Source of the DNA: Massalongia carnosa | Taxonomy: Eukaryota | NCBI GenBank assembly: GCA_965645245.1 | Contig: OZ287087.1 | Span: forward strand, 496,001 to 560,000 | Reading direction: 5' to 3' | DNA length: 64,000 nucleotides | Part shown: positions 1-49,723 of the stretch, one piece after another | Numbering within the stretch: the first letter of the stretch is position 1 | Layout of the letters: the number at the start of each line of letters is the position of its first letter | Notes under the pieces: model-generated | What the model was told of the DNA's origin: nothing | The model's input: only the letters and a program-made list of their open reading frames with translations | Databases searched by the model: none | Position numbers and translations under genes: made by a program

Positions 1-3000
1 CAGAGAATTGGAAGCTATTGCTCTGTTTTCTCACAGCAATGTAAGTCTACTGCTGTTATTTTTTCACAACCTACTTTTCCACACCTTACGCTAACGTCAA
101 GCTAGTATGAACGATGCTTTGTTAAGTCCTTCGGCTGGTATGATGATAGTGACAGCATATTTATTACTATGGAGTACCTTTCATATGGTGATTTGCATAA
201 GTACCTCAGTTCACCGCTACCAGAGAAGGAAGGACGGCATATCGTTTTTCAGATCCTCGAAGGCTTACAATTCATGCATGATAAAGGGTTCGCTCACAGA
301 GATTTAAAGCCAGCTGTAAGCCTAGCTACATGCATCAATATAATCAGAAACTTAGCTAATACTCTAAGTAATACAGAACATACTAGTTGTGGACAAAGGC
401 CCAGAGTGGTGGGTCAAGATCGCAGACTTTGGAGTCAGCAAGCGGGCAACAGAGGGACTTACAGCATTAAGAACCCAAAGAGGCACACCTGCTTTTATGG
501 CACCAGAAGTACTTGGCTTTATTCAATTGAACGACGAATCAAATGATTCGTATACAAACGCTGTTGATATCTGGTCTCTAAGTGTTATAACATTCTTCAT
601 ACTCACCGGCGAGATTCTTTTCAAAGACCCGCGCCGTCTAGGTCAGTATGTTGCGGGCAACTTTAAATTTCCTTTGAATGTCTTGCTTGTAAACAAAGTA
701 AGCAGACAGGGATGCGACTTCTTAAAAAGCTCAATGGCGTCAAAGTCTGAGGATCGTCCAAGGGCTAATGAATGTTTACAACATTCGTGGTTGGATTTTC
801 TTATAGAAGACGCGGCTCCTGACACTCCAAGGTATTAATTCTTATAGATGGAGACTGAAAATTATTATAATATCTTATAATAATAATGTTGTAGTGTTGC
901 TGATATCTTTGCAGAAAAATCAATGTTACAAAGCCAATGTCAACACCGCTAGACTGTTCAGATCCTGAGCCCTCTGCTAGTTGGAGCACTCAAGACTCAA
1001 TTTCGGCCTACGAGACGCATAGCTCTACGGGCGTGCTTACTAAAAAGACTTTGTCTACTTCTAAGGAAGCAGTAGCACCTTCAAAATCAGAACCAGCGAC
1101 TCAAATCTATTGGCATATGGCAAGCATCGTCAAGGGTCATTTGGGTTCTGTTCGGGCGGTGGCATTCTCGCCAGACGGGAAGCAGATCGCGTCCGCATCG
1201 GGGGACACGACGATCAGGCTCTGGGACTCGGCCACGGGGGCTTCGCGCAACATCCTCAAGGGTCATTTGGCTTCTGTTCGGGCGGTGGCATTCTCGCCAG
1301 ACGGGAAGCAGATCGCGTCCGCATCGGGGGACACGACGATCAGGCTCTGGGACTCGGCCACGGGGGCTTCGCGCAACATCCTCAAGGGTCATTCGGGTTA
1401 TGTTCGGGCGGTGGCATTCTCGCCAGACGGGAAGCAGATCGCGTCCGCATCGGGGGACACAACGATCAGGCTCTGGGACTCGGCCACGGGGGCTTCGCGC
1501 AACATCCTCAAGGGTCATTCGGGTGATGTTCGGGCGGTGGCATTCTCGCCAGACGGGAAGCAGATCGCGTCCGCATCGGGGGACACGACGATCAGGCTCT
1601 GGGACTCGGCCACGGGGGCTTCGCGCAACATCCTCAAGGGTCATTCGGATTATGTTCAGGCGGTGGCATTCTCGCCAGACGGGAAGCAGATCGCGTCCGC
1701 ATCGTGGGACAATACGATCAGGCTCTGGGACTCGGCCACGGGGGCTTCGCGCAACATCCTCAAGGGTCATTCGGGTGATGTTGAGGCGGTGGCATTCTCG
1801 CCAGACGGGAAGCAGATCGCGTCCGCATCGAAGGACACAACGATCAGGCTCTGGGACTCGGCCACGGGGGCTTCGCGCAACACCCTCAAGGGTCATTCGG
1901 GTGCAATTTTCGCGGTGGCATTCTCGCCGGACGGGAAGCAGATCGCGTCCGCATCGCGGGACACGACGATCATGCTCTGGGACTCGGCCACGGGCGTGCT
2001 TGCTGAAAAGACTTTGTATGCTTCTAAGGAAGCAGTAGCACCTTCAAAATCAGAACCAGCAACTCAAATCTATTGGCATATGGCAAGCATCCTCAAGGGT
2101 CATTCGGATGTGGTTGAGGCGGTGGCGTTCTCGCCAGACGGGAAGCAGATCGCGTCCGCATCGGGAGACACGACGATCAGGCTCTGGGACTCGGCCACGG
2201 GGGCTTCGCGCAACATCCTCGACGGTCATTCGGGTGGGGTTCGGGCGATGGCGTTCTCGCCAGACGGGAAGCAGATCGCGTCCGCATCGATGGACACGAC
2301 GATCAGGCTCTGGGACTCGGCCACGGGGGCTTCGCGCAACATCCTCAAGGGTCATTCGCATGTGGTTGAGGCAGTGGCGTTCTCGCCAGACGGGAAGCAG
2401 ATCGCGTCCGCATCGTGGGACACGACGATCAGGCTCTGGGACTCGGCCACGGGGGCTTCGCGCAACATCCTCAAGGGTCATTCGGGTGATGTTGAGGCGG
2501 TGGCGTTCTCGCCAGACGGGAAGCAGATCGCGTCCGCATCGTGGGACAATACGATCAGGCTCTGGGACTCGGCCACGGGGGCTTCGCGCAACATCCTCGA
2601 CGGTCATTCGCATGGGGTTGGGGCGGTGGCGTTCTCGCCAGACGGGAAGCAGATCGCGTCCGCATCGTGGGACATGACGATCAGGCTCTGGGACTCGGCC
2701 ACGGGGGCTTCGCGCAACATCCTCAAGGGTCATTCGCATGGGGTTGGGGCGGTGGCGTTCTCGCCAGACGGGAAGCAGATCGCGTCCGCATCGTGGGACA
2801 ATACGATCAGGCTCTGGGACTCGGCCACGGGGGCTTCGCGCAACATCCTCGAGGGTCATTCGCATGTGGTTAGGGCGGTGGCGTTCTCGCCAGACGGGAA
2901 GCAGATTGCGTCCGCATCGAAGGACAATACGATCAGGCTCTGGGACTCGGCCACGGGGGCTTCGCGCAACATCCTCGACGGTCATTCGCATGTGGTTGGG

Positions 3001-3063
3001 GCGGTGGCGTTCTCGCCAGACGGGAAGCAGATCGCGTCACATCCTCAAGGGTCATTCGGGTAG
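1..3063 (+). CDS. Ser/Thr kinase-WD40 (high-internal-conservation repeats) fusion, copy 1; 5' end lies outside the window
   Basis: Exons <1-40, 106-315, 377-831, 915-3063 with GT..AG introns and CTAAC/CTAAT/CTGAT branch sites splice in frame: HRDLKPA|NILV, DFG, APE, then a linker, 7 WD repeats, a duplicated linker, 7 more repeats and a broken repeat. A ~56-nt deletion at 3038/3039 frameshifts the last repeat (out-of-frame remnant to ~3190). Confidence 0.88.
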
Positions 3064-3147
3064 GGTTGTGGCGGTGGCGTTCTTGCCAGACGGGAAGCAG
3101 ATCGCGTCCGCATCGAAGGACAGGACGATCAGGCTCTGGGACTCGGC
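1135..3147 (+). repeat. 126-bp tandem WD40-coding repeats, two blocks separated by a duplicated linker (1990-2097)
   Basis: Unit [41 protein letters not shown](K/D/E), nearly invariant at the DNA level except a few codons. Confidence 0.97.
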
Positions 3148-4328: not shown

Positions 4329-5776
4329 CTATCCGTACAGCATGGTCGCTGCAATTGAATACTGTTTTAGTATATCTGCCCGCATTAACCATGCTGTCAG
4401 CTTTTTCAATTTTGCGGAATTTTCAATTATCGTGCGATAATTGTTAGTTTTCACTTGATTAAATAATTCATTTCTTCCGTCTATCAGCTGACAGTGCATG
4501 ATGACGTGTTTGGCCGTCTGCCTTGGCCATCCACATATGCACGCCGGTGAGTTTACATTGGGTACCCTTCGGTTGAAAAGAAAGTTGGCTAGCCCGATTT
4601 TCTCCGTGCGAATTTGCGTTGCTAGTGAACTCTCCGCTTTTGCCAAATTGCTGTGAATTTTTAATCTCTTTTTGTCAAGCGAAGCTTGTTGAGCCTCGGT
4701 GGGGAGTGGAATGCGATTTTGATAAGTCGCCCATGTTGACTTCCATATTTTCATACGATGCTCCATGAGCCGCGTATAATGTGCCCGTTGGGCCGTTCGC
4801 GCTTCTCTCAGCTCCTTGAGATATTCTGGACTGGCCTCGTACCACGGGGGCGCGGAAGGCGGTAATCTGATGGCGGCCTCTCCATTTAAAATTGCCTTGG
4901 CCCATGTGTGTTTCAGTTCTCCGGGTGTTGGCGGCGGAGTTTTTCTTCGACCCGCTCTTTCCCGTAGCTTATTAGCTATTATCTTGCATGCGGAGTTAGC
5001 GAGTGCTTTTTGCCCCGTGATTCGTAGTCGATATCTGGCTTTAGCCTGTAGTTGATCCAAATACACATCTATTGGGGCTATGTGTGTTTCTGCCTCCAGC
5101 ACCGGTATCAGGGTAGCCTTGAACGCTCCGGCGACTGTGCGTAGGCATCTGTTCTGAATGACCACCAATTTGGACGTTATAGATTTATTTCTATTTACGT
5201 CTTTCGGGGTGTGCCAGACGATTGAACCATATGTCATGGCTGGCCGCACCACCGCCGTGTATACTTGCCTGGCCCTAGCGAACGAAGCTCCCCAGGTAGA
5301 CGTGGAAATTTTTGTTAAGGCCATGCTCTGCTTGACCATCTTCTCCTGCGTTTTCCGTATGTGAGCACCCCACTTAAGTTTGGTATCTATTTGAAGACCG
5401 AGTATTCTTATATCCGCTTTTGGTTTGATTAGGCTGTTTTCTATATTAATAGTAGCCGTCATATCAAATTTCTTTGGATTTCTAGATAAATGAATAAGCT
5501 CGTACTTAGTCGGAGCAAATAAGGATCCGTGCCGTAGAGCCAATCTTTCACATTCTCTGTGAATTCTTTCTAGCGTTCTGCAATTTTCTTGCGTGCTTTT
5601 CCCACATGCTAGTACATTGATGTCATCGACGAATCCGAGTCCGCTCGTTTTCGTGCCGGGCCTGTTACATATGTCTAGTAAATCCGCATTGTAGAACAAA
5701 TACAGAATGGGAGAGATGGGTGAACCTTGCGGAATTCCGGTTCTCGCATCAAACTCGTCGGTGGTTCGTCGGTTGA
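4329..5776 (-). pseudogene. Tad1-like LINE ORF2 C-terminal part (RT end + Cys/His knuckle), 5'-truncated
   Basis: GIPQGSPISPILYLFYNADL, GFVDD, and CICGWPRQTAKHVIMHC motifs. Confidence 0.9.
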
Positions 5777-6918
5777 CTAAGAATGATAAAATAGAGTTGA
5801 CATCTCCTTCGTGAAGTCTCTATCCCAGTTTTCGTTCATCTCACTGGTGCGTTTTACGGCCCAAGACTATTGATGAATTCTACGATTGGGGTGAACGACG
5901 TCCCTTTCGCCCAGGTCAAACCCAGTTTACTCCTTAAGCATATATCAAGGGCGAGTCTAGCCGTAGCCCATGCGCCGGCTAACCGACGGGGTCTCGTTAC
6001 GAGCGAGATAGACATTCCCTGCTCTATATACACCGACATGCGCATACTGTCCTCTCGGGATATGCAGACGGTCTCCGTACGGTGGCCGCCATTGCATACC
6101 ACGCCTCACGGGTTTATTACGCCCACTTCGCGTTATTCATAAAGGTCTCCCGTTTATGAACCGACCATGTCTCGCAGGGATTTCGACCACTATGCTCCTG
6201 ACCAGGCAGTATAGTATCGATTTTCCGTCCCTACTAACCAAAACGAGTCGAGGACAACTCGGAGGGGTGCTCGTTTGAAATTCGTCTACTAGCTCAGGGC
6301 CTAGACTGTTATCAATTAACGGGTTCCTCGTACATTGCCCTCTTCTTGTCCCAAGGGTGTCCTATTTGATGACTAGGTTGCCTCCACCATCCCCGGTACG
6401 ACTCCGGTTCGGGCCGTGTTGCTCACGGTAGCCATCAATCGGATGGTTTTCATAACCCAAATCCCTTGTATCGTGTAGGGTGTGACCCTACACTATGTGT
6501 CTATATGTTTTATTTCTTTCAGCCGGAGGCTCCCTGTTGTAGACGAAGGAGACCCGTGTGATAGACATAGCTGACCCGTGTCGTACGTCTTTAGCTCTCA
6601 GCCGATGACTGCATGAAAGGACTTGAACCTTTAAGAGTATGACCGAACGTTGTTAACGAGGTCTATGAAAATCTTATTAACGAGGTCTTCGAGAACAATA
6701 TTAACGAAGTTCCGCTGAACTCTTTTCATTCGTTTTATGATCCATCGAGGTCTACCTGTGTCAAATCCACACCATGCCCGTGTCAAAATACATTATTTTC
6801 AGCTGATGACTGCTAGAAAGGACTTGAACCTCTAAAAATATGTACTCCGATATTAACGGGGTGCAGATCTTTCTTAACGAGCCCCCGCAGAACCCCCTTC
6901 ACAGGGACGTGTTATTGA

Positions 6919-17839: not shown

Positions 17840-18396
17840 GTTGAATAACTTCAAAGTTGGAGACAGCGAGGTATGATTATTGAAGACGGTGAGATAGGGG
17901 AGACGCGTCCCATGTTTACATCAATATTTAGTTTTAGCCCTTACGAGGTTAGGGGGCTGACTAGTTATGCAGCGGGAGCTATGTGGTATGAAATTTAAAA
18001 AAAAAAACGTCTGAGGTTTAGAAGTCCCCTAGATGGCGGGGCTGAATCCTAAGGTAGGCTAGATTTCGATGAGAACGAGCTTATACCTACCTATATCATA
18101 AAGGGGCACGCTCTGCCATTCAGAATAACCGGACCCTGTCATCTCCGTTGAATCCGGCGCCTCTGACGACGACCCCGTCGCTGATGCGGAGCAGTGCTCA
18201 GGCTCCGGGATGTAGGTCAGACATAGTTCACATACTACGCTATGGTATCTTGAATGACCGACCATCTTTTGCGGTTTGTGATTGTAAGCTGTGATCGGTG
18301 ACTGCCGGTATTTTACGATTTGCGCGTGAGTTCGAGCTGATGATCTACAGACCAAGCGCCTCCTGTCCGCACAAGAGCAGATGTCAGATCGCTACC

Positions 18397-20278
18397 ATGC
18401 CACCTATTTCAGACCTTGTGCAGCTTTCAAAGCTCGAGACTCAATTCCACTCTGATCCGGAATATACGCAACACGTCCAGTACGTTTCTGGAAGTACGGC
18501 TAGACAAAGAAAAGTTTGCATGGAGGAAAAATGGATGAGAGAAAGGATGCTAGTTTCGGAATCGTCTGGTTAGAGCGGTGTATTCAAGGGAACAGTGAAG
18601 GGAAAGTACGAGCCGTAAAGAAGGTCCGAAAACTTGAGTCAAGCGATTATTACAGAGAATTGGAAGCTATTGCTCTGTTTTCTCACAGCAATGTAAGTCT
18701 ACTGCTGTGATTTTTTCACAATACACGTTTTCACACTTTAAGCTAACGTCAAGCTAGTACGAACGATGCTTTGTCAAGTCCTTCGGCTGGTATGATGATA
18801 GCGACAGCATATTCATTACTATGGAGTACCTTTCATATGGTGATTTGCACAAGTACCTCGGTTCACCGCTACCAGAGAAGGAAGGACAGCATATCGTTTT
18901 TCAGATTCTTGAAGGCTTACAATTCATGCATGATAAAGGGTTCGCTCACAGAGATTTAAAGCCAGCTGTAAGCCTAGCTACATGCATAAATAAATCAAAA
19001 ACATTACCTAATACTCCAAGTAATACAGAACATACTAGTTGTGTGCAAAGGCCCAGATTGGTGGGTCAAGATCGCAGACTTTGGAGTCAGCAAGCGGGCA
19101 ACAGAGGGACTTACAGCATTGAGAACCCAAAGAGGCACACCTGCTTTTACGGCACCAGAAGTACTCGGCTTGATTCAATCGAACGACGAATCAAATGATT
19201 CGTATACAAACGCTGTCGATATCTGGTCTCTAAGTGTTATCACATTCTTCATACTCACCGGCGAGATTCTTTTGAAAGACCTGCGCCGTCTAGGTCAGTA
19301 TGTTGCGGGCAACTTTAAATTTCCTTTGGATGTCTTGCTTGTAAACAAAGTAAGCGGACAGGGATGCGAATTCTTAAAAAGCTCAATGGCGTCAAAATCT
19401 GAGGATCGTCCAAGGGCTAATGAATGTTTACAACATTCGTGGTTGGATTTTCTTATAGAAGAGGCGGCTCCCGACACTCCAAGGTATTACTTCTTATAGA
19501 TGGAGACAGAAAATTATTATAATATCTTATAATAATAATATTGTAGTGTTGCTGATATCTTTGCAGAAAAATCAATGTTACAAAGCCAATGTCAACACCG
19601 CTGGACTGTTCAGATCCTGAGCCCTCTGCTAATTGGAGCATTCAAGACTCAATCTCGGCCTACGAGACGTATAGCTCTACGGGCGTGCTTACTAAAAAGA
19701 CTTTATCTACTTCCAAGGAAGCAGTAGCATCTTCAAAATCAGAACCAGCGACTCAAATCTATTGGCATATGGCAAGCATCCTCAAGGGTCATTCGGATTC
19801 TGTTCAGGCGGTGGCATTCTCGCCAGACGGGAAGCAGATCGCGTCTGCATCGTGGGACACGACGATTAGGCTCTGGGACTCGGCCACGGGGGCTTCGCGC
19901 AACATCCTCAAGGGTCATTCGGGTGGGATTCGTGCGGTGGCATTCTCGCCAGACGGGAAGCAGATCGCGTCTGCATCGAGCGACACGACGATCAGGCTCT
20001 GGGACTCGGCCACGGGGGCTTCGCGCAACATCGTCAAGGGTCATTCGGATTCTGTTCAGGCGGTGGCATTCTCGCCAGACGGGAAGCAGATCGCGTCCGC
20101 ATCGTGGGACACGACGATCAGGCTCTGGGACTCGGCCACGAGGGCTTCGCGCAACATCCTCAAGGGTCATTCGGATTCTGTTCAGGCGGTGGCATTCTCG
20201 CCAGACGGGAAGCAGATCGCGTCCGCAACGTGGGACATGACGATCAGGCTCTGGGACTCGGCCACATGGGCGGCGTAA
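18397..20278 (+). pseudogene. Kinase-WD40 gene copy 2, frameshifted; 4 WD repeats
   Basis: Same exon structure as copy 3. A 10-nt deletion (gaagtggcag) at 18553/18554 removes the GSGSFG loop and shifts the frame. Confidence 0.88.
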
Positions 20279-20307
20279 TATGGTTTTCCAGTACCTAGAA
20301 AAGTTTT

Positions 20308-20551
20308 TGTCAAATGTCAGCTATACTGGCATTAACCAACATTGGTCAACGGGCCCGTCACATGCCCGTCACATGACATTGCAACCGCGGCAAAGGTAAA
20401 AATTCTTCATCCCCCACATTCTTTCTTCCTTCGGAGACATCTCTTGATCTATCCCCTGGCGGCATACCTAGCTAGAAAATCATCTATAGATCACCTCATC
20501 TGGTCAAGACGTAAATCATCTCAACTGATCATCAGGGCAAAAAGCCTCAGA
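20308..20551. mobile_element. Solo-LTR-like insertion in the 3' region of copy 2
   Basis: Absent at the homologous site after copy 3. Starts tgtca; TSD gtttt. Confidence 0.6.
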
Positions 20552-36167: not shown

Positions 36168-39100
36168 TGTCAACCTTTCACATGAATTCAGGAAGGATGA
36201 AAAAGGCTGTATTCTGTATGTGGGAAATGCCCACATCTAGCTACCTATATAGAAAGGAAAAGGGGTCATGGCAGCAACGATATCAACCCCGGCAAATTGA
36301 GGGGTAAAGGTGTGGAAGAAATGGCGTAGCTTAGCGGCATCTGCCGCGACAGGGGGTCGAGGATCGGCGATGAGAATCGACCACATTCAGGTTTGACACA
36401 CCCCCCCAGGATGCGAAGCATCCTGACCAAAAGAAGAAAACATGAAGCAATTCCCATTCGAGAAAAAGGTGCAATTCTTGCAAAATCAAAATGAGATGCC
36501 AGTGAAAAGAAATTTCTGCCCGCCGAGAGGAATTCCGCCCGGTTCACTCCCGCCTGCCCCATTCCTAAATCAGACACTTGATATCAATAAGGCCTAGCAT
36601 TTCCAGAAAGGAACGATGCTTTTGCGGAGGCAAGGGCTTGGTGAGACCATCTGCCGTCATCCGGTTGGTCTGTAGATAACCCACATTGAGATGACCAAAT
36701 TGAACGCTCTGTCTCAACCACAACTGAGCGATGTCTACATGCAGAAGTTTGGTGGTAACTTTGGGCTGTTCCGACGTCAGAATGCGGATGGTCTGCATGT
36801 TATCATTGTAGATTTTGACCGAATGGTCGTAGTCGAATCCCAGCTTGCCAAAGAAATTAATCCACCAGATGCATGCCTTGCCGGCATGGAGAAGGGCAAG
36901 CAATTCTGCCTCTGTCGTCGAAGTTGAGACGGTCGCCTGCTTCCTGGCAGCCCAGTCGATCATGCCGCCATATAGCTTGAATGTGAAACCCTCGTAGCTG
37001 CGTCGCTCGGGACTATTTGCAAAGCTGGCATCGGCAGTGTTTTCGAAGACATGCTTTGCCGAGAGCTGATCATCATCCGGAGACTGCACGGTAAGCTCGC
37101 CACCTCCCGAGGGTGAGTATTTTATCGCCAGATACTTAGTCGCGTGTAGATATTGCAGGCAGTGATTTGCCGCGTCTAGATGCTCCAGACCGGGACAGGT
37201 GAGATGCTCTGCCAATTTGGAGGCAGCTTTGGCAACGTCCGGCCGAGTGATATTCGCGGGATAGCAGATCGATCCTACCTTTTTACGATATTCCTGCCTC
37301 AGGGATTGGTCGACTGACCGAGGCGAGTCCGAGTCTGGGCTAGCTGCCGAGGCAGAGGTGAATGCGATGAAGTCTGACGGTAGCGGGGATGACGGAGATT
37401 TAGACGTGTCTATCTCGTATTCAATTGCCAACTTGTCCATGTAGGAGTCTTGACAAAGATAAATGTCGCCAGCATTTCGAACAATCCGTACACCGAGAAA
37501 GAAGCTCAATTGGCCCATGTCGCGTAATTCAAATCGAGCATTCAACTTCTGAATCAGCAGATCTACGTCTGCAGCTCTACTTTCCGGAAAGATGATGACT
37601 ATGTCATCCACATAGAAAAAGAGGATGATGCCAGAGTAGTCGGTAAAAAGGCAGGGCTCGCCAGGGATCTGCTGCATGTCCAATGAGGTGAGTGCTTTGG
37701 AAAATTCTCGTAGCCATAGTAGAGGCGATTTTCGAAGCCCGTACAAAGCCCGGACCAGGAGCAAGCATTTCCCCTCGATGACGAAACCATCTGGCATGTA
37801 CACGTGGATGACCCTATCGGCTTTGGCATTTAGGAAGGCATTGATCGCGTCAAACTGCCTTGTCCTGAGTCCGAAAGCAGACGTCAGGGCCATGAGGCAC
37901 CTGAAGATCTTAATTGCCAGCGTAGAGGCGTATACATCTTCCGCCGAGACTTCTTCCAAATCCCCTCGGACTACCAGGCGTGCCTTGTATTTTACTAGAA
38001 AGCCATCCGGGTCGAACTTGTATGTAAATACCCACATTAGTGGAAGCGGCTTCTGATTGGAAGTTTTGGGAATGACGACGAAGGTGTCCATTCTGAGAAG
38101 AGTCTGATATTCAAATTCGGCTGCTTTGCGAAATCCTTCTGCATGGGGATGTCGAAGCATACCTCGCCACTGCTTCGGCGGCGGCGGCAGGCTGTCCCTA
38201 TGCAATCTGGTCGACCTAGTAGTCACTGCAAATGCCAAATAAACTTCCTTCATCCCGTCATCCAATCCCGAGTTTGTATTCCCTAGTGGTTCCGAAGCGA
38301 TGCCGAGTGGTCTGATGCCGAGAGGTGCTGCGAGATTTGCGAATTTCTGCTTCGGTTTTCTGACTCGTTTTCCTTCGACGATATTGCTGACATCCAATTT
38401 GGCAGATCCGATATTCCTACTGGGACCGGTGCCAAAAGATTCGGCAATGCCGAGAGGCGTCCGGCCGGTTTCTGGCAGATCAGTCGGTAGATCTATGCTA
38501 CTCGGAAGACTGTCTTTTACCACCCGTTTGTCGCGAGATGTTGACGAAGAAGATGTAGGTGCAGGTGCTGAAGTCGATGGAGGCGGAGTGCTCTCGGGAG
38601 TCGGAAGATGCTGCTGACTCGGTGAATGTCTCGGCATGATAGGGACGTCTTTCGCAGTCAACGACGCGGGCACATCCAGTGCGGACGAATTTTCAACCGA
38701 CGAAGAAGGATCAGCAAATGACCGATTGCGCACAGATGTCGCCAGCCATTGCTCCTCATTTTCTGCCAAATCAACAATGTAGGGAGCAGCATCGAAAACT
38801 TCCAGCTCTACAAACTCGGCCACCTTCTCTTCGGGAATCAGATCCTTTTTGACGTATGTGGAGAAGGTTTGATCCTCATCAAAGATAACATCTCTATATC
38901 CGCTGACCGACCAGGTCTCGGGATTCCAGACTCGATAAATGTTTGTAGAATCGTATCCGACCAGATAGCCAACAAATGCTCGAGGAGCTAGTTTCTCACT
39001 TTTTGGCGGGGCATCTTTACCTTTCAGAAGGGGATATGCCTTGCACCCAAAGACCTTGAGATGACCAATTTCGGAATTGTATGGCTTCTTCAGGGCTCGG

Positions 39101-41996
39101 TGCAGGGAGATGTGAGGCGATTTCCAATCTAGTCCTTTTGTCGGCGTCCTATTTAGCAAGTGTCCAGCAGCGAGATAGCACTCGGGATACAGATCTTCTG
39201 GCAAATCGGCGCCGATGCGAATGCATCTAGCCTTCTGAGTCAAAAGGCTTCCTGCCCTCTCAGCCGACCCATTCTGCTCCTTAGTATGCTTTGCGGACCA
39301 TTCAAACGCGATTCCCTGTTCCTTGACGAAGTCCTGAATGACGTCTCCAACCGACGTTTCCTGATCCATTCGAAAGGTCTGAACGAAAAGACCGAATTCG
39401 GCTCCGAGTCGATCGCACCGATTTATGACATGCTTGACAATCCTAAGTAGTGTCTCCTGCTTATGATCTTGCAGGGGGAAGACCCAATGAAACGAGGTGA
39501 AATCATCCTGAAAATGAGCGACGCAGGTGGTCCCATCGAAAGCAGTCCTTTTCAAAATAATGAGGTCAAAATGAAGACGCTGGAATGGTTTAGTGGCTTT
39601 AGTAGCCGAGACCCTTGATACTAGTGTATGCATTTTTGACAATGCGCACGTCTCACATTTCACTGTCTTTGGAGCATCTTGACCACTGTTACCTCTTGAA
39701 ATCTCAATCATCTTCTGATTCGACAACTGGTTAATGACTTCCGGTTGGCAATGTCCTAGGCGGAGATGAAATTTCCATGGCGTGCCTTTTGGGATGGCAT
39801 CTGCCGAGACTCGGGAACCGACGAAATTTGCGAAAGCACCAGCGTGGCCAACGGGACGATACTCGGCAGTGTAGAGACCGAAATGCTCTTCCAATTCGAA
39901 GATTGAAATACCCTTCTTCTCGACCGTGTCCGTATGCATGTTCCACAGAAATCCATCCTTTTTCAGCTTGCTGACCGAAATCAAAGTCACCGATGAGTCG
40001 GGAACGTATGCTGTGTGTCGAAAATGCAGAGGCTGATTCTTCCCTTTTAGTGTCCCATTCACCAACATTGTCCCAAAACCTTCAATAAGGAGATCTCCGT
40101 CGGGAGTCGAGACCCACTCGTATGCCGGGATGATTTCGTCAATAAAACGGGATTTGTCCCAGGTCAGATGATTGGAGCATCCCGAGTCGTAGGAGACGCT
40201 GAGATGAAGCAGATTGTCGCGATCCGAGATAGTATTTCCAAAAGAGACTGGAGCATTCTCGACAACAGGGAGCTCGGCGGGAGCATTGCCATTGCCTCGG
40301 CCACGACCTCCATCTCCGCGACCCCCTCGACCTCCACCTCTTCCTCTTCCTCGAGGTTTCAAAGGTTCATCAGGCTCGGAGATGCCGTTGAGAATGTCGG
40401 ATGTAGCGGCGCGTTTGACATACCAATAAAGCTTGGAATTGGACCCGATTTTTTGTCGGATGTGGTCGCGTATCTCCTTATTGAATTTCCATCCCGAGAT
40501 TCTAGACTCGACTGTCAAATAAGGGCATCTTTTCCAGGAGTGAGTTTCGCCGCAAAGGCATTCGTTATTGCTGTACTTGCTATCGTCAGAAGTGGAATTT
40601 CCCCGATCGGAAGACTGTCCTTGTAGAGAAGCGGAATTCGCCGAGAGCTGCTGACGACGACCAGTGCTGATTGCATTTTCTTCTATCTCGGTCCGATACT
40701 CATTGGCGGCCTCGAAGAATTTAAGGGGACGACCTGATACATTTCGTATCTTGATCCAGGTGTCGCAAAAGAATGGTGCCCATATCCGAGCGGCTTTCAG
40801 AAAGTGCTGAGTGTAGATATACTCACTATAGATGGGTTCAACTTTCAAAGCAACGATTTCTTCCCTCAGCGTTTCCCATTGGCAGATCCAAGATTCGATC
40901 TTCCCTTTCACCGGGTGAGAATTTCTCAACTCGTCGTATTGGCGATCGATCTGCCTTTGAACTTCGTCCGGACTCTTTTTGAATTTATGGGCCAGGGACT
41001 GAAGAATTTCTCGAACCGAGGATGATCTGACATTCCTGGCGACATAATCTTTAGCCGACTCTAGGATGACCGTATGAACCTTCTCAATTCCCATGGCTGC
41101 GGCCCTGGCATCTGCCTGAAGCCCTCGATGTGACCGTTCATCTGCATTGTACGACTCCTTCTGTGATTCCGAGAGATCGGCATACCGAGAACATGGTTCG
41201 GGAATCAGGACCGGCGGGCCATTTAAATCGCCGAGAACTGTCCCTTGAGAAGAACCTTGAGAAGCGACAATAGCAGGCGTAGGGATATTGGTAGAGTCAG
41301 TGCCAGGCGTATTAACCGGGACGACTTTGACGTAATCACTGAATTTGGGAAATTTGGGAATGGTAGGTTCCGATTCTGATCCTTCCGGATCGACGTACTC
41401 CCATACCTGAGATCGTACTGCGATACCCTTGATTTCCGACAACCAGGAATTGTAGGTCCTAGGCGTCAGAGCCGAGACGATGAGTTTCCGAGACGATCCC
41501 GACGAGTAGTCTTCCATTTGGGATAACCGACCAAAGATGGAGACAGATGGGAAAAACAGGGAAACGACCAAAAAGGCAAAGGAAAATAGAAGCACGAGGA
41601 ATAAATCAACTCTGCGATGCTCCATGAGAGATACGATAATTCCGGCGGCGATACTCAGCCTGCCTAGGATATTTCGGGGTCGATGAAGGCAGCGATAAAT
41701 CAGCTTACCAATAACTAAAGTTAAGACGGAGGCAGCGAAAAACTCAGCTAACCCGGGCTCATAACTGTCAACCTTTCACATGAATTCAGGAAGGATGAAA
41801 AAGGCTGTATTCTGTATGTGGGAAATGCCCACATCTAGCTACCTATATAGAAAGGAAAAGGGGTCATGGCAGCAACGATATCAACCCCGGCAAATTGAGG
41901 GGTAAAGGTGTGGAAGAAATGGCGTAGCTTAGCGGCATCTGCCGCGACAGGGGGTCGAGGATCGGCGATGAGAATCGACCACATTCAGGTTTGACA
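36168..41996 (-). mobile_element. Full-length Copia element C1
   Basis: 231-bp LTRs 36168-36398 and 41766-41996; TSD ctgct; PBS-like gttatgagcccgg. Confidence 0.97.
36565..41625 (-). CDS. Copia C1 gag-pol polyprotein (intact)
   Basis: YDSGC protease, FHLRLGH, integrase core, YVDD RT, ADASF RNase H. Confidence 0.93.
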   Translation of the reverse strand: MEHRRVDLFLVLLFSFAFLVVSLFFPSVSIFGRLSQMEDYSSGSSRKLIVSALTPRTYNSWLSEIKGIAVRSQVWEYVDPEGSESEPTIPKFPKFSDYVKVVPVNTPGTDSTNIPTPAIVASQGSSQGTVLGDLNGPPVLIPEPCSRYADLSESQKESYNADERSHRGLQADARAAAMGIEKVHTVILESAKDYVARNVRSSSVREILQSLAHKFKKSPDEVQRQIDRQYDELRNSHPVKGKIESWICQWETLREEIVALKVEPIYSEYIYTQHFLKAARIWAPFFCDTWIKIRNVSGRPLKFFEAANEYRTEIEENAISTGRRQQLSANSASLQGQSSDRGNSTSDDSKYSNNECLCGETHSWKRCPYLTVESRISGWKFNKEIRDHIRQKIGSNSKLYWYVKRAATSDILNGISEPDEPLKPRGRGRGGGRGGRGDGGRGRGNGNAPAELPVVENAPVSFGNTISDRDNLLHLSVSYDSGCSNHLTWDKSRFIDEIIPAYEWVSTPDGDLLIEGFGTMLVNGTLKGKNQPLHFRHTAYVPDSSVTLISVSKLKKDGFLWNMHTDTVEKKGISIFELEEHFGLYTAEYRPVGHAGAFANFVGSRVSADAIPKGTPWKFHLRLGHCQPEVINQLSNQKMIEISRGNSGQDAPKTVKCETCALSKMHTLVSRVSATKATKPFQRLHFDLIILKRTAFDGTTCVAHFQDDFTSFHWVFPLQDHKQETLLRIVKHVINRCDRLGAEFGLFVQTFRMDQETSVGDVIQDFVKEQGIAFEWSAKHTKEQNGSAERAGSLLTQKARCIRIGADLPEDLYPECYLAAGHLLNRTPTKGLDWKSPHISLHRALKKPYNSEIGHLKVFGCKAYPLLKGKDAPPKSEKLAPRAFVGYLVGYDSTNIYRVWNPETWSVSGYRDVIFDEDQTFSTYVKKDLIPEEKVAEFVELEVFDAAPYIVDLAENEEQWLATSVRNRSFADPSSSVENSSALDVPASLTAKDVPIMPRHSPSQQHLPTPESTPPPSTSAPAPTSSSSTSRDKRVVKDSLPSSIDLPTDLPETGRTPLGIAESFGTGPSRNIGSAKLDVSNIVEGKRVRKPKQKFANLAAPLGIRPLGIASEPLGNTNSGLDDGMKEVYLAFAVTTRSTRLHRDSLPPPPKQWRGMLRHPHAEGFRKAAEFEYQTLLRMDTFVVIPKTSNQKPLPLMWVFTYKFDPDGFLVKYKARLVVRGDLEEVSAEDVYASTLAIKIFRCLMALTSAFGLRTRQFDAINAFLNAKADRVIHVYMPDGFVIEGKCLLLVRALYGLRKSPLLWLREFSKALTSLDMQQIPGEPCLFTDYSGIILFFYVDDIVIIFPESRAADVDLLIQKLNARFELRDMGQLSFFLGVRIVRNAGDIYLCQDSYMDKLAIEYEIDTSKSPSSPLPSDFIAFTSASAASPDSDSPRSVDQSLRQEYRKKVGSICYPANITRPDVAKAASKLAEHLTCPGLEHLDAANHCLQYLHATKYLAIKYSPSGGGELTVQSPDDDQLSAKHVFENTADASFANSPERRSYEGFTFKLYGGMIDWAARKQATVSTSTTEAELLALLHAGKACIWWINFFGKLGFDYDHSVKIYNDNMQTIRILTSEQPKVTTKLLHVDIAQLWLRQSVQFGHLNVGYLQTNRMTADGLTKPLPPQKHRSFLEMLGLIDIKCLI

Positions 41997-43702: not shown

Positions 43703-44331
43703 CTTCTTCCTCCTCTTTCTCCTTCTCTTCTACCTCTCCCCGCACAGCAAAGCCGTTTCCCTATCATCATCATCATCCACTACCTCAGGAACTTTGTCTA
43801 CCATTTAGCATCGAGCATAATCCTCCCCATGACGAGAAAGCAAACGTTATTCAAGTCGCTTCTCACGGCGGAACCACCCAGTATCTTTGTCATATAGGTC
43901 GGAAAGCCGGCTAAAACACACCTCGGCTCCCTTCAGCCCGTTCAGTAGACCTCATTCATCCCAAAGCTCAATGAAAGACTCGAGTGATGAAATGCTCAAG
44001 TACATCAAGACCTCCGTCGGGATTACGACAAGCGAGAAGGCAACTACGTTGATGAACATACAAGGACTCCTATTCGACGAAGACTGTCATTTTACTGTCA
44101 GACTTGGTCAAGTCTTGCGGGGGCTGGTAATGCACATTTTAGGTGTAGCTTCTTAAGGATTAAACTGATGAACGATGATTAACAGTACATCGCAGATCGA
44201 ACCTTTTCATAACACTGTCATCACACCGTCGTCACGCCGACAAGGATATTACGATCACATCAGAAATAAGAGTCGAATCAGAAACGCACCAAACCCGTAA
44301 TTCAGCGATCATGTTAAGCCATTGAACAACT

Positions 44332-45986
44332 TTATACTAGAATTTCGTTCAGCTTCATAAGTATCTAAAGACATTGTTAGCACGAGCTTTCCGTAAAAGC
44401 CGTATAATTGATAAACCTTGTCAATGTATTTCACACCCACTAAGACACCATCCTGGTCTTCGAACTCGCTCTGATCGCCAAAATCTGCATTGTCTTGATC
44501 TAGGCAAGTCAGACAGTTTATCACAACTTCCTCGTATCGCTCTCCCATCCGCTTGGATAGATCGCGTTTCGCAACAGCGATCAGGCGCTCTTTAATCAGA
44601 GCTGGCTGTTTGAGTTCGGGGCTGTTCAAAGTAATGCCGAGTGCTGCGGCAGGAAGAGGGGCTGTCACACCATCCGCATATGATACGAATGACTCCCACA
44701 ACCCAACCTCCAAAAGACAGACACCTAGGCTGTAGATGTCATGTTGCATGGTATAGATTTCCTCAGGGTTCAATCCCTGACGATGTGGGTGACGGTAGAG
44801 ATTCTTCTCCCAAGTAGAGTCACCTGACCGCCTTGTTCGACCATCTACTGTGCGCATCTTCTCGAAACCGACAAGGAAGAACAAGCCAAACTCAGATTCA
44901 TTAGTTTGGAAGCCAAGAACAGTCTCGGGCCGGACGTTCTTGTGCACAAAGCCAAGTGTATGGACATAGCTGATAGACTTGGCCAGTTGTTTTGCAAGCT
45001 GGAAACGGTCTGTAAGTGTATGATCGAAATATGAGGAGAGATAACTCCGAAGACTTCTAGGCTCGTTGCTGAGCTCTCTGGGTATTCGGAATATGAAATC
45101 AAAAGAGGATGATCTCCCGCTGCTGGGTTCCATAACTCGAACTACACCGCGGCACTGAAGTATGCCGAATGTAAGAGGGTCCACAGAAGAGAGTTTTCTT
45201 GCAAGCTCCCTTACATCTCTTGTCATCAAGCCTATGTCGACTTCCGGATCGCATGGGATGCGGTCTACCACGAACCATTTGTCCGAGCCAGCTCTCTGCA
45301 TACACTTCGCAGATGCGAAAGGAATCTCGCGCATCCCCGCCGTCTCAAGTCCATCTTTTGGAAGGAAAACGGAGACTTTCTGAAGAGGCTGCTCCCTCAG
45401 AGCGTCTCTAAGGCTATGCGTGCCGGTGAACGAAGATATCGCCGACCCATTTCTGCTCAGCTCCTGATCAATCAAGGGACTTGAGACCTTCAGGATTAAA
45501 AACCAAGATGGATCGAACAACTTCTGCCATGAGGTCAAATCCTCAATAGATTCATCAAGACATTTTTTAATCAGGACATATTTCAATTTATTTACTTCTA
45601 TAACCCAGCCATTTGTTGCTTGATTATCGGATCTCCTTTCGGACAGTTTAACAAGTTTAGAGGTTATGAGGCTTAATTTGTTGATTAGTACCTGGTAAAT
45701 CTGATCCTGAATTGATTGATGTTCCTCGTCCAGGCCGTTCCATATCCGCTTGATAAAGTCTAGTTGTAAGTCTGTGCGTTTCCAGTGATTTTCTACGCAG
45801 AGTACTCGCTCATTTATCTCGGCCTCTGCGCCCTTGAAGGTTGCGCATGTCTCGACAAGAATCTTACCATATCTGGATTGTGTCAGATGGCAGTGCAACA
45901 GAGAGAGAATGGAGACGAGCAACTCACTTGATACATAGGTCGGCTGTTGCAAAAACAGCAAACGTTATCCCGACTACTTCTGCCAT
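44332..45986 (-). CDS. HeLo-like domain + pseudokinase (MLKL-like) protein, ~515 aa
   Basis: Exons 45986-45928, 45872-44417, 44364-44332 (GT..AG, in frame). Hydrophobic N-terminal helix MAEVVGITFAVFATADLCIKYGK and a helical domain, then a kinase fold with VHKNVRPET, LVGFE, LYRHP, DIYSLGVCLLE. HeLo assignment is by family recognition, not by a search. Confidence 0.85.
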
Positions 45987-46541
45987 GAGTCACGACAGTG
46001 TACTTGGATCCTGGACACAAAAAAAGCGGTAAATGATGGGGAAGAGAGACGTCGTTGTATTCCATTAGGCGGAACACTCGATAGAGGCGGTGTCTGCTCT
46101 AGCTAGATAGGGTAAAGCTTGAGCTTGGGGATGTGATGGCGGGGCTGAATCCTAAGGCAGAAGGCATAAGGCTAGATTTCGTTTTCCGTAGCCATCATGA
46201 GAACGAGCTTATACCTACCTATATCATAAAGGGGTGTTTGAGAGGTCTCCTTCACGCTCTGCCAGTCAGAATAACCGGACCCTGTCATCTCCGTTGAATC
46301 CGGCGCCTCTGACGACGACCCCGTCGCTGATGCGGAGCAGTGCTCAGGCTTCGGGATGTAGGTCAGGCATAGTTCACATACTACACTATGGTACATGAAT
46401 GACCGACCATCTTTTGCGCGTTGTGATTGTAAGCTGTGATCGGTGACTGCCGGTATCCTACGATTTGCGCGTGAGTTCGAGCTGATGATCTACAGACCAA
46501 GCGCCTCCTGTCCGCACAAGAGCAGATGTCAGATCGCTACC
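45987..46541. promoter_or_regulatory. Putative bidirectional promoter region
   Basis: 555 bp between divergent ATGs; no TE recognised in it. Confidence 0.55.
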
Positions 46542-48811
46542 ATGCCACCTATTTCAGACCTTGTGCAGGTTTCAAAGGTCGAGACTCAATTCCACTCTGA
46601 TCCGGAATATACGCAACACGTCCAGTACGTATCTAGAAGTACGGCAAGACAAAGAAAAGTTCGCATGGAGGAAAAATGGATGAGAGAAAGGATGCTAGGA
46701 AGTGGCAGTTTCGGAATCGTCTGGTTAGAGCGGTGTATTCAAGGGAACAGTGAAGGGAAAGTACGAGCTGTAAAGAAGGTCCGAAAACTTGAGTCCAGCG
46801 ATTATTACAGAGAATTGGAAGCTATTTCTCTGTTTTCTCACAGCAATGTAAGTCTACTGCTGTTATTTTTTCACAACCTACTTTTCCACACCTTACGCTA
46901 ACGTCAAGCTAGTATGAACGATGCTTTGTTAAGTCCTTCGGCTGGTATGATGATAGTGACAGCATATTTATTACTATGGAGTATCTTTCATATGGTGATT
47001 TGCATAAGTACCTCGGTTCACCGCTACCAGAGAAGGAAGGACAGCATATCGTTTTTCAGATCCTCGAAGGCTTACAATTCATGCATGATAAAGGGTTCGC
47101 TCACAGAGATTTAAAGCCAGCTGTAAGCCTAGCTACATGCATCAATATAATCAGAAAATTAGCTAATACTCTAAGTAATACAGAACATACTAGTTGTGGA
47201 CAAAGGCCCAGAGTGGTGGGTCAAGATCGCAGACTTTGGAGTCAGCAAGCGGGCAACAGAGGGACTTACAGCATTAAGAACCCAAAGAGGCACACCTGCT
47301 TTTACGGCACCAGAAGTACTTGGCTTTATTCAATTGAACGACGAATCAAATGATTCGTATACAAACGCTGTTGATATCTGGTCTCTGAGTGTTATCACAT
47401 TCTTCATACTCACCGGCGAGATTCTTTTCAAAGACCCGCGCCGTCTAGGTCAGTATGTTGCGGGCAACTTTAAATTTCCTTTGAATGTCTTGCTTGTAAA
47501 CAAAGTAAGCGGACAGGGATGCGACTTCTTAAAAAGCTCAATGGCGTCAAAGTCTGAGGATCGTCCAAGGGCTAATGAATGTTTACAACATTCGTGGTTG
47601 GATTTTCTTATAGAAGACGCGGCTCCTGACACTCCAAGGTATTAATTCTTATAGATGGAGACAGAAAATTATTATGATATCTTATAACAATAATGTTGTT
47701 GTGTTGCTGATATCTTTGCAGAAAAATCAATGTTACAAAGCCAATGTCAACACCGCTGGACTGTTCAGATCCTGAGCCCTCTGCTAGTTGGAGCACTCAA
47801 GACTCAATTTCGGCCTACGAGACGCATAGCTCTACGGGCGTGCTTACTAAAAAGACATTGTCTACTTCTAAGGAAGCAGTCGCACCTTCAAAATCAGAAC
47901 CAGCGACTCAAATCTATTGGCATATGGCAAGCATCCTCAAGGGTCATTCGGGTTCTGTTGGGGCGGTGGCGTTCTCGCCAGACGGGAAGCAGATCGCGTC
48001 CGCATCGTGGGACACGACGATCAGGCTCTGGGACTCGGCCACGGGGGCTTCGCGCAACATCCTCGAGGGTCATTCGGATTCTGTTTTCGCGGTGGCGTTC
48101 TCGCCAGACGGGAAGCAGATCGCGTCCGCATCGTCGGACACGACGATCAGGCTCTGGGACTCGGCCACGGGGGCTTCGCGCAACATCCTCGAGGGTCATT
48201 CGGATTCTGTTTTCGCGGTGGCGTTCTCGCCAGACGGGAAGCAGATCGCGTCCGCATCGTCGGACACGACGATCAGGCTCTGGGACTCGGCCCCGGAGGA
48301 TTCGCGCAACATCCTCAAGGGTCATTCGGGTGTGGTTTGGGCGGTGGCGTTCTCGCCAGACGGGAAGCAGATCGCGTCCGCATCGTGGGACACGACGATC
48401 AGGCTCTGGGACTCGGCCACGGGGGCTTCGCGCAACATCCTCAAGGGTCATTCGGGTGTGGTTTACGCGGTAGCGTTCTCGCCAGACGGGAAGCAGATCG
48501 CGTCCGCATCGTCGGACACGACGATCAGGCTCTGGGACTCGGCCACGGGGGCTTCGTGCAACATCCTCAAGGGTCATTCGGGTGTGGTTGGGGCGGTGGC
48601 GTTCTCACCAGACGGGAAGCAGATCGCGTCCGCATCGTGGGACACGACGATCAGGCTCTGGGACTCGGCCACGGGGGCTTCGCGCAACATCCTCGAGGGT
48701 CATTGGGATTCTGTTGACGCGGTGGCGTTCTCGCCAGACGGGAAGCAGATCGCGTCCGCATCGTCGGACACGACGATCAGGCTCTGGGACTCGGCTACAT
48801 GGGCGGCGTAA
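46542..48811 (+). CDS. Ser/Thr kinase-WD40 (7 high-conservation repeats) fusion, copy 3, intact, ~686 aa
   Basis: Exons 46542-46847, 46913-47122, 47184-47638, 47722-48811 splice in frame. GSGSFG, AVKK, HRDLKPAN, DFG, APE all present. Confidence 0.92.
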
Positions 48812-49723
48812 TATGGTTTTCCAGTACCTAGAAAAGTTTTTCACATAGAAAATTATTACAACCTCCTTCCCCACCCACCTCCATCGCCACCCACCTCCAT
48901 CGCCCTTTAGGTCCTTATATACCATTTTTTTAATCATTGGATTATTAATTCCTGCTTCAAAGAATGTCGCTCTACTTTGATTTCTAAGCTACTTCGAAAC
49001 TCTTGTCCTGGAATGTACTTTGCTTTGAAATCCTAAGTCACGGCGTATAACGACCTCGCGGTTAAATAAGCTTTACCATTAAGTTAACCGACCTATTAGC
49101 CTTGTAGGACGAATAGGCACGAATCTGTAGTGAGAAACTTCAGTGCGTATTCTACTACGTGTACGATAGAGGCACATTAATCAGAAAATGACAGCATAAA
49201 CGCAAACAGAAAAAAGTAACCTTTCCAAAAACGCAGAACAAAGAACGTAGCTTCAGGCGACGTCACTACATCACAAACCAAATCCTGTTCCGCTGCCATC
49301 AAAACGAGACGAATGCAAATCTGCGGCGGACGGTAAATACCAAACCGCCATAACGAAATTCTTGAGTTTCGAATCGCGACATTGCGACGAAAAAACAACG
49401 TACATTTATAATTCCACGCTTTCTTCTCTTCCCATTTCTTCCTCTCTATTATATAAAGTTAGTATAGTTCAATGATGGGACTTCGTACGATCTGAAACAT
49501 ACTCTTCAACCTTGTCTGATATGCTTAAAGTGTCAACCTGCGCTGCCGCTAACTCTCGAGACAACTGAACATCAGGGTTGTCTTCTACAGAAGACAACGA
49601 GACGGTTGTCTCAATTGTACGACGCTCTGACGCAGACGCAGACGACGAAAGAGGGAGTGCCACATGAGAGAACTGTTGCGTTAAGGGAGGAATAGGTCTG
49701 ACGATCGCGTACACTCCGTCTAT

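Follow-up and report, generated by a model that had tools for sequence, protein, structure and literature searches.

A WD40 propeller with hypervariable top-face codons joined to a protein kinase in Massalongia carnosa: a candidate recognition receptor without a NOD domain

The stretch of DNA described here, referred to as the window, covers 64,000 nt of Massalongia carnosa (assembly GCA_965645245.1, contig OZ287087.1, positions 496,001–560,000), and all coordinates given are window-based. Self-comparison revealed one gene in three copies (1 to ~3190, 18107–20308, and 46253–48841; 94–96% identity outside the repeats), which couples a protein kinase to an array of WD40 repeats. Copy 3 is intact. 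Its introns (65, 61, and 83 nt) are all of the GT..AG type, and the spliced model is a single open frame of 686 aa laid out as kinase, linker, and seven WD40 units. Pfam recognizes Pkinase across three exon open reading frames (ORFs; E-values to 1e-19 per exon) and seven WD40 matches in the last exon, and the catalytic motifs GSGSFG, AVKK, HRDLKPAN, DFG, and APE are all present. Since its closest solved structures are STK17A/B, Chk2, CaMK1, and Rad53, the kinase part is assigned to the eukaryotic CAMK type, and it is predicted to be an active Ser/Thr kinase.

Copy 1 is 95.9% identical to copy 3 across 1–1988 (dS 0.03, omega 0.27), and a kinase tree places these two copies closest to each other. 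Copy 2 has lost 10 nt after position 18551, a deletion that, in the alignment, takes out a portion of the glycine-rich loop and breaks the reading frame. This copy is probably a pseudogene, and a recent one, which may still serve as a store of repeat units. Between paralogues, the kinase part is under purifying selection: omega for the kinase and linker ranges from 0.21 to 0.30, with dS from 0.03 (copies 1 and 3) to 0.10.

Tandem Repeats Finder reported a period of 126 at 1120–1994, 2083–3038, 19772–20265, and 47927–48795, and a conserved 14-nt anchor occurs 27 times on the plus strand and never on the minus strand. Cutting in register yielded 27 units of 126 bp (42 residues) in four arrays, with 22 units complete and 5 clipped by array ends or by a deletion. 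An initial inspection of the letters and ORFs alone (hereafter the sequence-only reading) had estimated about 27 almost invariant repeats of this length in three copies; there are exactly 27, in three paralogues. It had also treated 1135–3147 as a single stretch. The repeats are indeed there, 16 of them, yet they form two arrays (1a with 7 units, 1b with 9) between which lies a second copy of the leader found ahead of an array, and they are further broken by a frameshifting deletion. The second leader marks an internal duplication or a recombination joint. The deletion removes 56 nt after position 3038, which brings a stop into frame at 3061–3063, and at 2962–3108 the period detected by Tandem Repeats Finder drops to 70 (126 minus 56). 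Copies 2 and 3 hold 4 and 7 units, respectively. The coordinates of all features are collected in Table 1.

Codons are numbered within the unit from the G of GH. Seven of them (3, 4, 5, 7, 23, 25, and 42) are hypervariable (HV), the remaining 35 being non-HV. At the first six, the residues observed are identical to the sets listed by the sequence-only reading, to which the variability of codon 42 is an addition; codon 6 is I in 2 of the 27 units. The multi-nucleotide nonsynonymous changes that it described are likewise found, with 11 codon states at codon 7 and 7 at codon 5. Per nucleotide, units differ from one another by 23–44% in HV codons and by 1.3–4.0% in the rest. The proportions of nonsynonymous (pN) and synonymous (pS) differences are 0.40 and 0.19 in HV codons, versus 0.014 and 0.054 in the other 35, so that the near-invariance does extend to synonymous sites. 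The chief silent variant among non-HV codons is GCA/GCG at codon 10.

This distribution bears the signature of diversifying selection that had been suspected from the sequence. On the aligned repeats, dN/dS is 2.6 in the seven HV codons and 0.25 outside them. When minimum state changes per codon are counted (by hand, from the codon-state table), 29 nonsynonymous and 5 synonymous changes fall in the 7 HV codons, as against 12 and 12 in the other 35 (Fisher p 0.007), and the 29 compare with 8.7 expected from the silent rate (Poisson p 4e-8). All of these tests use paralogous repeats of a single assembly rather than alleles. The seven-codon HV set was picked after inspecting the data, a post-hoc choice that is avoided by a-priori sets of four and seven codons taken from published Podospora positions. 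For the first of these, codons 5, 7, 23, and 25 (Paoletti et al. 2007), dN is 11.1 times the array-wide dS (7.6–15.2 in a bootstrap over units), and just 3 of 111,930 four-codon sets are as variable.

The published positions are those of the HNWD repeats of Podospora anserina. Paoletti et al. (2007) describe HNWD codons 7, 9, 25, and 27 as two pairs flanking a conserved residue, one pair in the strand d-to-a loop and the other in the b-c turn, at the top of the propeller (PMC1805685). A long-read HNWD study of 2025 gives positions 10, 11, 12, 14, 30, 32, and 39 (PMC12222747). The four codons map to 5, 7, 23, and 25 of the window unit, and the seven positions to 3, 4, 5, 7, 23, 25, and 32; this register is deduced from loop assignments, spacing, and model DSSP, and the two papers agree with each other at an offset of 5. 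The match to HNWD that the sequence-only reading had proposed is a close one, with 6 of the 7 most variable codons within the published seven-position set (hypergeometric p 9e-6).

The copy 3 array was modelled with AlphaFold2 from an alignment of 14 sequences, which gave 28 strands arranged as seven four-stranded blades (pLDDT 95.4, pTM 0.91). The best match in the PDB is the WD40 domain of PkwA (5yzv; 50% identity, TM 0.93–0.98), and other close structures are designed seven-blade propellers and a highly repetitive propeller from Nostoc (2ymu). In the model, the seven HV codons fall at the final residue of strand D, within the D-A loop, at residue 2 of strand A, or in the B-C turn, and by model DSSP the A-B and C-D loops contain none of the seven. 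All seven are thus predicted to lie on one face, the "top", as assigned from blade topology rather than measured distances. The A-B (SPDGK) and C-D (SATGA) loops on the opposite face are equally exposed, yet invariant, which argues against a mere absence of constraint.

The sensor had further been described as joined to a kinase with neither NACHT nor NB-ARC, and Pfam, Walker A, and gene-model checks agree on this point. Pfam finds no NACHT or NB-ARC in any copy 3 exon ORF or in the long ORF of copy 1, where only Pkinase/PK_Tyr_Ser-Thr and WD40-type families are recognized; it finds no HET domain either, the N-terminal part being the protein kinase. The 686-aa model of copy 3 leaves no space for a NACHT domain and, because a divergent gene begins about 580 bp from its start codon, there is no room for a further domain. 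The same holds among the relatives described below: no Walker A motif occurs in any of 24, and Pfam detects no NOD family in the 30 nearest long kinases.

The arrays also bear traces of their turnover. Every one of the 11 units in array 1a and copy 2 has GCA at codon 10, and every one of the 16 in array 1b and copy 3 has GCG. This single informative silent marker conflicts with the kinase tree, which unites copies 1 and 3, so that copy 1 looks like the joint of a copy 2-type array and a copy 3-type array, second leader included. Array 1a and copy 3, compared unit by unit in order of rank, differ at 4–9 of 21 HV nucleotides although the flanks have a dS of 0.03, which points to replacement of the HV sets after the duplication. 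The same HV set is also found repeatedly inside arrays (three times in copy 2, twice in copy 3, and twice in array 1b), which suggests recent unit duplications, and unit number per array is 4, 7, and 7+9. The near-identity of units within and between paralogues fits turnover by unequal crossing-over or gene conversion, as would be expected under concerted evolution. Comparison across species gives a similar picture: the 35 non-HV residues have an identity of 0.98 within the genome versus 0.62–0.87 to other species, and 7 of 9 arrays, all but P0006 and P0011, are more similar internally than to any other array. To judge by these identities, arrays homogenized species by species present the pattern of concerted evolution.

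Relatives of the kinase were collected by a word-indexed search with its third exon, which returned 24 at E ≤ 1e-5 among 259 candidates. Kinase and WD40 families occur together in 16 of the 24, and the 12 of these with a named source organism are without exception from lichen-forming fungi, including Lobaria, Sticta, Lasallia, Letrouitia, Endocarpon, Psora, and Varicellaria; kinase-only matches include Rutstroemia and Xylaria. Thirteen relatives have at least 4 recognizable units, in arrays with at least 70% internal identity for 7 of them and degenerate for the other six. In the 7 homogeneous arrays, the most variable positions are 23, 4, 5, 7, and 25 (mean pairwise differences 0.84, 0.78, 0.78, 0.75, and 0.55), followed by position 37 at 0.45 and all others at 0.33 or less. 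A 10-residue motif between kinase and propeller, found by regular expression in 14 of the 24 relatives, is present two or three times in some (P0001, P0019). This motif is rich in Ser/Thr and could be a phosphorylation or docking site.

An exhaustive profile search extended the kinase relatives to 7,520. Among the 30 nearest long ones, Pfam assigns WD40 to 9, TPR_10/TPR_12 to 4, tandem kinases to 3, and no further family to 14. The TPR-fused or multi-kinase relatives, the latter with two to five kinase domains, are P0069, P0074, P0141, P0159, P0038, P0134, and P0140, and TPR_10/TPR_12 repeats are of a kind common in fungal NLRs (NOD-like receptors). The WD domain is 61–70% identical to fungal NACHT-WD40 proteins named HET-E-1 at the source, and is similar also to bacterial STAND-WD40 and kinase-WD40 proteins; among the matches listed, scored from the best 8,000 candidates by shared words, none reached 90%.

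The gene is also represented in other samples. About half of the sampled kinase-part words are present in five runs from three studies (P1, P2, P3), with no RNA run among those listed, and contigs of four runs (X1, X2, X4, X5) cover the gene at 90–100% likeness, with the silent GCA/GCG variant. Array differences among those listed concern codon 10 (silent, twice), codon 42, codon 3, and codon 31 (silent). These Logan contigs are 100–430 nt long, many fit two places (537 of 987 in X5), and none bridges an array or a unit. A loose end comes from a lichen metagenome, in which the same backbone has Asn at codon 42 and Lys-Glu at codons 4–5, residues absent from the window. The close metagenome loci L002–L005 end after 0–3 units or are decayed. 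In L005 (1560–1830), in-frame stops stand where the conserved Trp of WD units is expected, a decayed copy in another fungus.

On this evidence, we consider, with a probability of roughly 60%, that the lineage-restricted, cytosolic CAMK-like kinase, its linker of about 80 residues, and the seven-blade WD40 propeller form a NOD-less recognition receptor whose variable face is under diversifying selection. Such a protein is a kinase-coupled, NOD-less variant of a known receptor design. The variable face would be the ligand-binding surface, as in HET-E/HET-D of Podospora and in other fungal NLR WD sensors, and its ligand could be either a variable non-self molecule or a polymorphic self molecule. 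Binding to the propeller might relieve autoinhibition or bring the kinase to its substrate, the output being phosphorylation in place of NOD-driven oligomerization. The damaged copies, copy 2 and perhaps copy 1, would be able to act as stores of repeat variants.

A number of points weigh against this interpretation. Recombination among repeats can inflate site-wise dN/dS, and selection is read here from the paralogous repeats of one assembly. The position equivalent to HNWD position 39 (codon 32) is invariant in the units of the window. Two of the three copies are damaged as assembled, by the deletions of 10 nt in copy 2 and 56 nt in copy 1, and part of the pattern may be decay, given the transposon surroundings. 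Near-identical 126-bp arrays are known to misassemble from short reads (PMC12222747), and the public contigs are too short to span one unit. A kinase joined to a propeller, moreover, need not be a receptor, as WD40 domains also recruit substrates or partners.

Three other explanations were weighed. The first, which we regard as unlikely, is a function in allorecognition, resembling vegetative incompatibility, rather than in sensing other species: the variable face would bind conspecific allelic variants, as HET-E/HET-D do with HET-C, and a mismatch would trigger the kinase signal. Variation falls at the positions known from het-e/het-d, the family has several copies and a fast turnover, and the likeness of the WD domain to proteins named HET-E-1 (61–70% identity) points in the same direction. 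Against this, no polymorphic partner gene has been identified, Pfam detects no HET domain, the literature searched contains nothing on incompatibility in these fungi, and the data fit recognition of a foreign ligand equally well.

The second explanation is that the protein is an ordinary signalling kinase with a young tandem array and no receptor function, its HV codons being merely the least constrained part of the surface and evolving by neutral drift. Highly repetitive WD40 proteins with diverse hotspot sites have indeed been read as products of recent repeat duplication (PMC5587647), and the non-HV pS of 0.054 is of the same order as the dS between paralogues (0.03–0.10), so the units are young or recently homogenized. 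Under drift, however, dN would not exceed dS, whereas at HV codons it is 7–11 times higher. Changes of two or three bases are common, the exposed A-B and C-D loops are wholly invariant, and the same positions vary in the separately homogenized arrays of other species, all of which makes drift improbable. Most improbable is the third explanation, an artefact or relic consisting of a collapsed or chimeric repeat assembly and decaying duplicates in a transposon island, with no functional array protein: copy 2 is frameshifted, copy 1 has a deletion of 56 nt and a duplicated leader, the remaining window is transposon, short-read assemblies of such arrays are unreliable (PMC12222747), and the metagenome relative L005 has stops in its WD units, but copy 3 is intact over 686 codons and three introns, the kinase part has an omega of 0.21–0.30, the changes in copy 2 have no bias like that of repeat-induced point mutation (RIP; 14 of 48), annotated relatives of full length come from 12 or more named fungi, and four other runs share both the backbone and the silent GCA/GCG variant.

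Table 1. Features of the window and, in unit positions, of the 42-residue WD40 unit.
Feature	Position	Strand	Remarks
Copy 1, 5' end cut by window edge	2-3063	+	kinase exons 2-40, 106-315, 377-831; last exon 915-3063 with two arrays
Array 1a, 7 units	1135-1995	+	all GCA at codon 10
Second leader copy	1996-2097	+	separates arrays 1a and 1b; 1027-1994 vs 1990-2957 = 91.5%
Array 1b, 7 complete units + 59 nt of eighth	2098-3038	+	all GCG at codon 10
Last unit of copy 1	3050-3147	+	out of frame with remainder as assembled
LINE-like reverse transcriptase remnant	4329-5819	-	Pfam RVT_1; directly downstream of copy 1
Copy 2, probable pseudogene	18397-20278	+	10-nt deletion in exon 1; four-unit array
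Copy 2 array, 4 units	19787-20266	+	all GCA at codon 10
Pseudokinase main exon, divergent neighbour of copy 3	44309-45961	-	~580 bp from copy 3 start codon, head-to-head
Copy 3, intact gene	46542-48811	+	exons 46542-46847, 46913-47122, 47184-47638, 47722-48811
Linker motif, 10 residues, between kinase and propeller	47774-47803	+	also 967-996; slightly altered at 19619-19648
Copy 3 array, 7 units, closed seven-blade propeller	47942-48799	+	all GCG at codon 10
HV codon 3	3 (unit)		S/L/W; 3 amino acids, 3 codon states
HV codon 4	4 (unit)		G/D/H/A; 4 amino acids, 4 codon states
HV codon 5	5 (unit)		S/V/G/D/Y/A/R; 7 amino acids, 7 codon states
HV codon 7	7 (unit)		R/G/Q/E/F/V/W/Y/D; 9 amino acids, 11 codon states
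HV codon 23	23 (unit)		W/G/S/K/R/M; 6 amino acids, 8 codon states
HV codon 25	25 (unit)		T/N/M/R; 4 amino acids, 5 codon states
HV codon 42	42 (unit)		K/E/D; 3 amino acids, 3 codon states; residue preceding next GH
D-A loop	1-5 (unit)		model DSSP
Strand A	6-11 (unit)		model DSSP
A-B loop	12-16 (unit)		model DSSP
Strand B	17-22 (unit)		model DSSP
B-C turn	23-25 (unit)		model DSSP
Strand C	26-31 (unit)		model DSSP
C-D loop	32-36 (unit)		model DSSP
Strand D	37-42 (unit)		model DSSP

Elsewhere in the window, ORFs of at least 140 codons belong to transposons, the sole exception being the gene at 44309–45961 on the minus strand. The transposons comprise a LINE-like reverse transcriptase, a piggyBac-like element, a MULE, one gypsy, and three copia elements. 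As the LINE-like element next to copy 1 is also found downstream of copy 3 (49985–51163; 3032–5488 matches 48680–51144 at 95.5%), it is part of the duplicated segment. Two copia-type retrotransposons (36168–41996 and 52314–58145) are 99.3% identical, and both have an open frame about 1,736 codons long; transposition in the region is therefore recent, and this duplicated DNA has no sign of RIP. As an origin of the variation, RIP was rejected: substitutions are of all kinds, with C>T and G>A making up only 14 of 48 changes in copy 2.

The exception mentioned above is the divergent neighbour of copy 3. The duplicated segment of copy 2 does not include it, beginning only at 18107 (equivalent to 46253), and for copy 1 the corresponding region falls beyond the window edge. 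The C-terminal half of the neighbour has a kinase fold, according to weak Pfam matches and to VIA-align (Z 16.5–17.9 to many kinases), without the catalytic Asp residues: HRD is replaced by HK[N/G] (HKN in the window) and DFG by GFE, both invariant in 8 aligned sequences, as is one Thr in the segment after GFE. MLKL also carries GFE in place of DFG. The first ~165 residues are modelled as long helices (pLDDT 70 overall, low in parts). For the N-terminal 304 residues, Pfam returns no family even at E 5, and no first exon was identified among short ORFs in 45962–46250.

How close this neighbour is to MLKL was assessed in several ways. Its top Foldseek match is full-length mouse MLKL (4btf, TM 0.37–0.42), with many kinases close behind, and in VIA-align MLKL scores Z 17.0, tied with other kinases (Z 16.5–17.9) and inseparable from TK/TKL kinases. 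In the ESM atlas it groups, at 0.99, with fungal clusters of which 11–35% of members have HeLo and 10–29% DUF7580, one cluster being named "Het-s domain-containing"; vertebrate MLKL scores 0.84. Pfam detects no HeLo in the neighbour or in 8 homologues, which show only DUF7580 and kinase families overlapping the pseudokinase. The gene encodes a pseudokinase whose predicted build is MLKL-like. Fusions of HELL with a kinase or pseudokinase domain occur in some fungal proteins (PMC12881547).

Of 80 metagenome loci, 15 have a homologue of the neighbour adjoining one of the kinase (L001, L004, L006–L012, L029, L033, L034, L061, L062, and L064); it lies upstream and head-to-head in 11, upstream but on the same strand in 3, and downstream in 1. 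In a quick tree, as were all trees of the pairing, the window kinase belongs to a 6-row clade (SH-aLRT 98) whose nearest clade has 5 rows (99); the node joining the two with the long-branch row L025 has a support of 82 and is drawn open. Among these 12 rows, pairing is found in all 6 with more than 1.3 kb of upstream flank, and the flanks of the other 6 (263–1,239 bp) are too short to reveal it. Pairing is absent from a 20-row clade whose flanks are ample. When labels were shuffled on the tree, the 35 rows whose upstream flank measures 2.5 kb or more gave 5 changes versus a shuffled mean of 9.6 (1 of 500 as low). With all 68 rows included, no clustering of pairing was seen (10 changes; 241 of 500 shuffles gave as few), since those of insufficient flank were scored as unpaired. 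Since kin share labels, this test shows inheritance and not co-evolution.

In related clades, some paired kinases (L006, L029, L033, L011, and L008–L010) have other C-terminal parts in place of WD40. By eye from translations, these include a long low-complexity linker with a hydrolase-like part, SH3-like parts, and others. The arrangement suggests a constant kinase–pseudokinase core with C-terminal modules that would be swappable.

These observations raise the possibility, which we put forward tentatively, that kinase-WD40 and pseudokinase constitute a two-gene, NOD-less, necroptosis-like module, a fungal counterpart of RIPK3-to-MLKL with a germline-diversified sensor. A ligand on the hypervariable face would switch the kinase on, the kinase would phosphorylate the neighbour in the segment after GFE, where the invariant Thr lies, and phosphorylation would free the helical N-terminal domain to damage membranes. 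The literature searched (subscription journals and supplements lay outside the search) contains nothing on hypervariable WD40 arrays on fungal kinases or on this lichen family, and, within the same limits, nothing on DUF7580 or a kinase clustered with a fungal HeLo-pseudokinase. As far as these searches show, a kinase-coupled family so far restricted to lichen-forming fungi and paired with an MLKL-like pseudokinase is new.

Among known systems, the nearest is the HNWD/NWD family of Podospora anserina (HET-E, HET-D, HET-R). It shares with the window the 126-bp, 42-residue units of very high internal identity and the positively selected top-face positions in the D-A loop and B-C turn (6 of 7 coinciding). 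In Podospora, repeats are exchanged between paralogues, pseudogenes included, and the turnover described here may be of this kind. Podospora alleles are thought to form double propellers (PMC12222747), which may be compared with the two arrays of copy 1. A number of differences can be noted. The proteins of the window have no recognizable NACHT or HET domain and bear an active-looking protein kinase at the N-terminus; codon 42 is variable and the equivalent of HNWD position 39 is not; the host belongs to the lichen-type ascomycetes. With a WD identity of 61–70%, the arrays are related to, and not shared with, those of proteins named HET-E-1. Fungal NLRs are well known for highly conserved repeats in which surface positions are under positive selection (PMC1805685, PMC4986451, PMC12222747), and NLRs account for only 60–70% of highly conserved repeats in Dikarya, leaving 30–40% outside, which the passages available do not describe (Dyrka et al. 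2014). The family described here is a concrete case of the latter. Fungal sensors that are hypervariable on the top face and evolve in concert have been studied in NLRs, where the NOD converts binding to oligomerization, whereas here such a sensor is wired to a kinase, showing that the diversifying sensor is portable as a module. The family is moreover widespread in lichen-forming fungi, in which self/non-self or partner recognition is hardly known, and offers a simple system for studying how ligand binding by a propeller can switch an enzyme.

PkwA from Thermomonospora curvata and other prokaryotic Ser/Thr kinase-WD40 proteins have the same order, a kinase followed by a seven-blade, highly repetitive propeller. 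In the window, by contrast, a kinase of eukaryotic CAMK type is encoded by a gene with three spliceosomal introns, which makes this a parallel fusion rather than a transferred PkwA. The transfer of a whole PkwA-type gene from bacteria was rejected on the same grounds, as only the WD40 part resembles PkwA. Hu et al. report diversity at the hotspot sites of highly repetitive WD40 proteins and a mainly prokaryotic association of kinase with WD40 (PMC5587647); paralogue exchange and a dN/dS pattern are not described for PkwA in the passages available.

Other systems also dispense with a NOD. Some fungal gasdermin-activating proteases are fused directly to WD40, TPR, or ANK repeats without a NOD and are encoded beside gasdermins (PMC12881547, PMC10197012). 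They resemble the window in placing an effector enzyme directly on an NLR-type repeat sensor next to a putative executioner gene, and differ from it in that the enzyme here is a kinase and not a protease, and the neighbour a helical pseudokinase and not a gasdermin. In plants, wheat Lr39/Lr41 is a tandem kinase-MSP-WD40 protein acting as a non-NLR immune receptor (bioRxiv 10.64898/2026.02.17.706082), and likewise combines kinase and WD40 without an NLR. Unlike here, kinase and pseudokinase share a single chain, with the effector bound by the second kinase and helper NLRs contacted through the WD40 part; hypervariable repeats are not reported in the available passages of that work.

Finally, animal RIPK3-MLKL combines, as the window would according to its sequence, an active Ser/Thr kinase with a pseudokinase that has a helical N-terminal domain, encoded here by adjacent genes. 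In contrast to that pair, no RHIM was seen, and the kinase is CAMK-like rather than RIPK-like. Fungal HeLo/HELL executioners use an amyloid-templating route, to which the two-gene module, if true, would add a phosphorylation route. If the pairing with the pseudokinase is functional, it would supply the missing kinase step of fungal necroptosis-like death and make the evolutionary link to RIPK3-MLKL directly testable with two genes.

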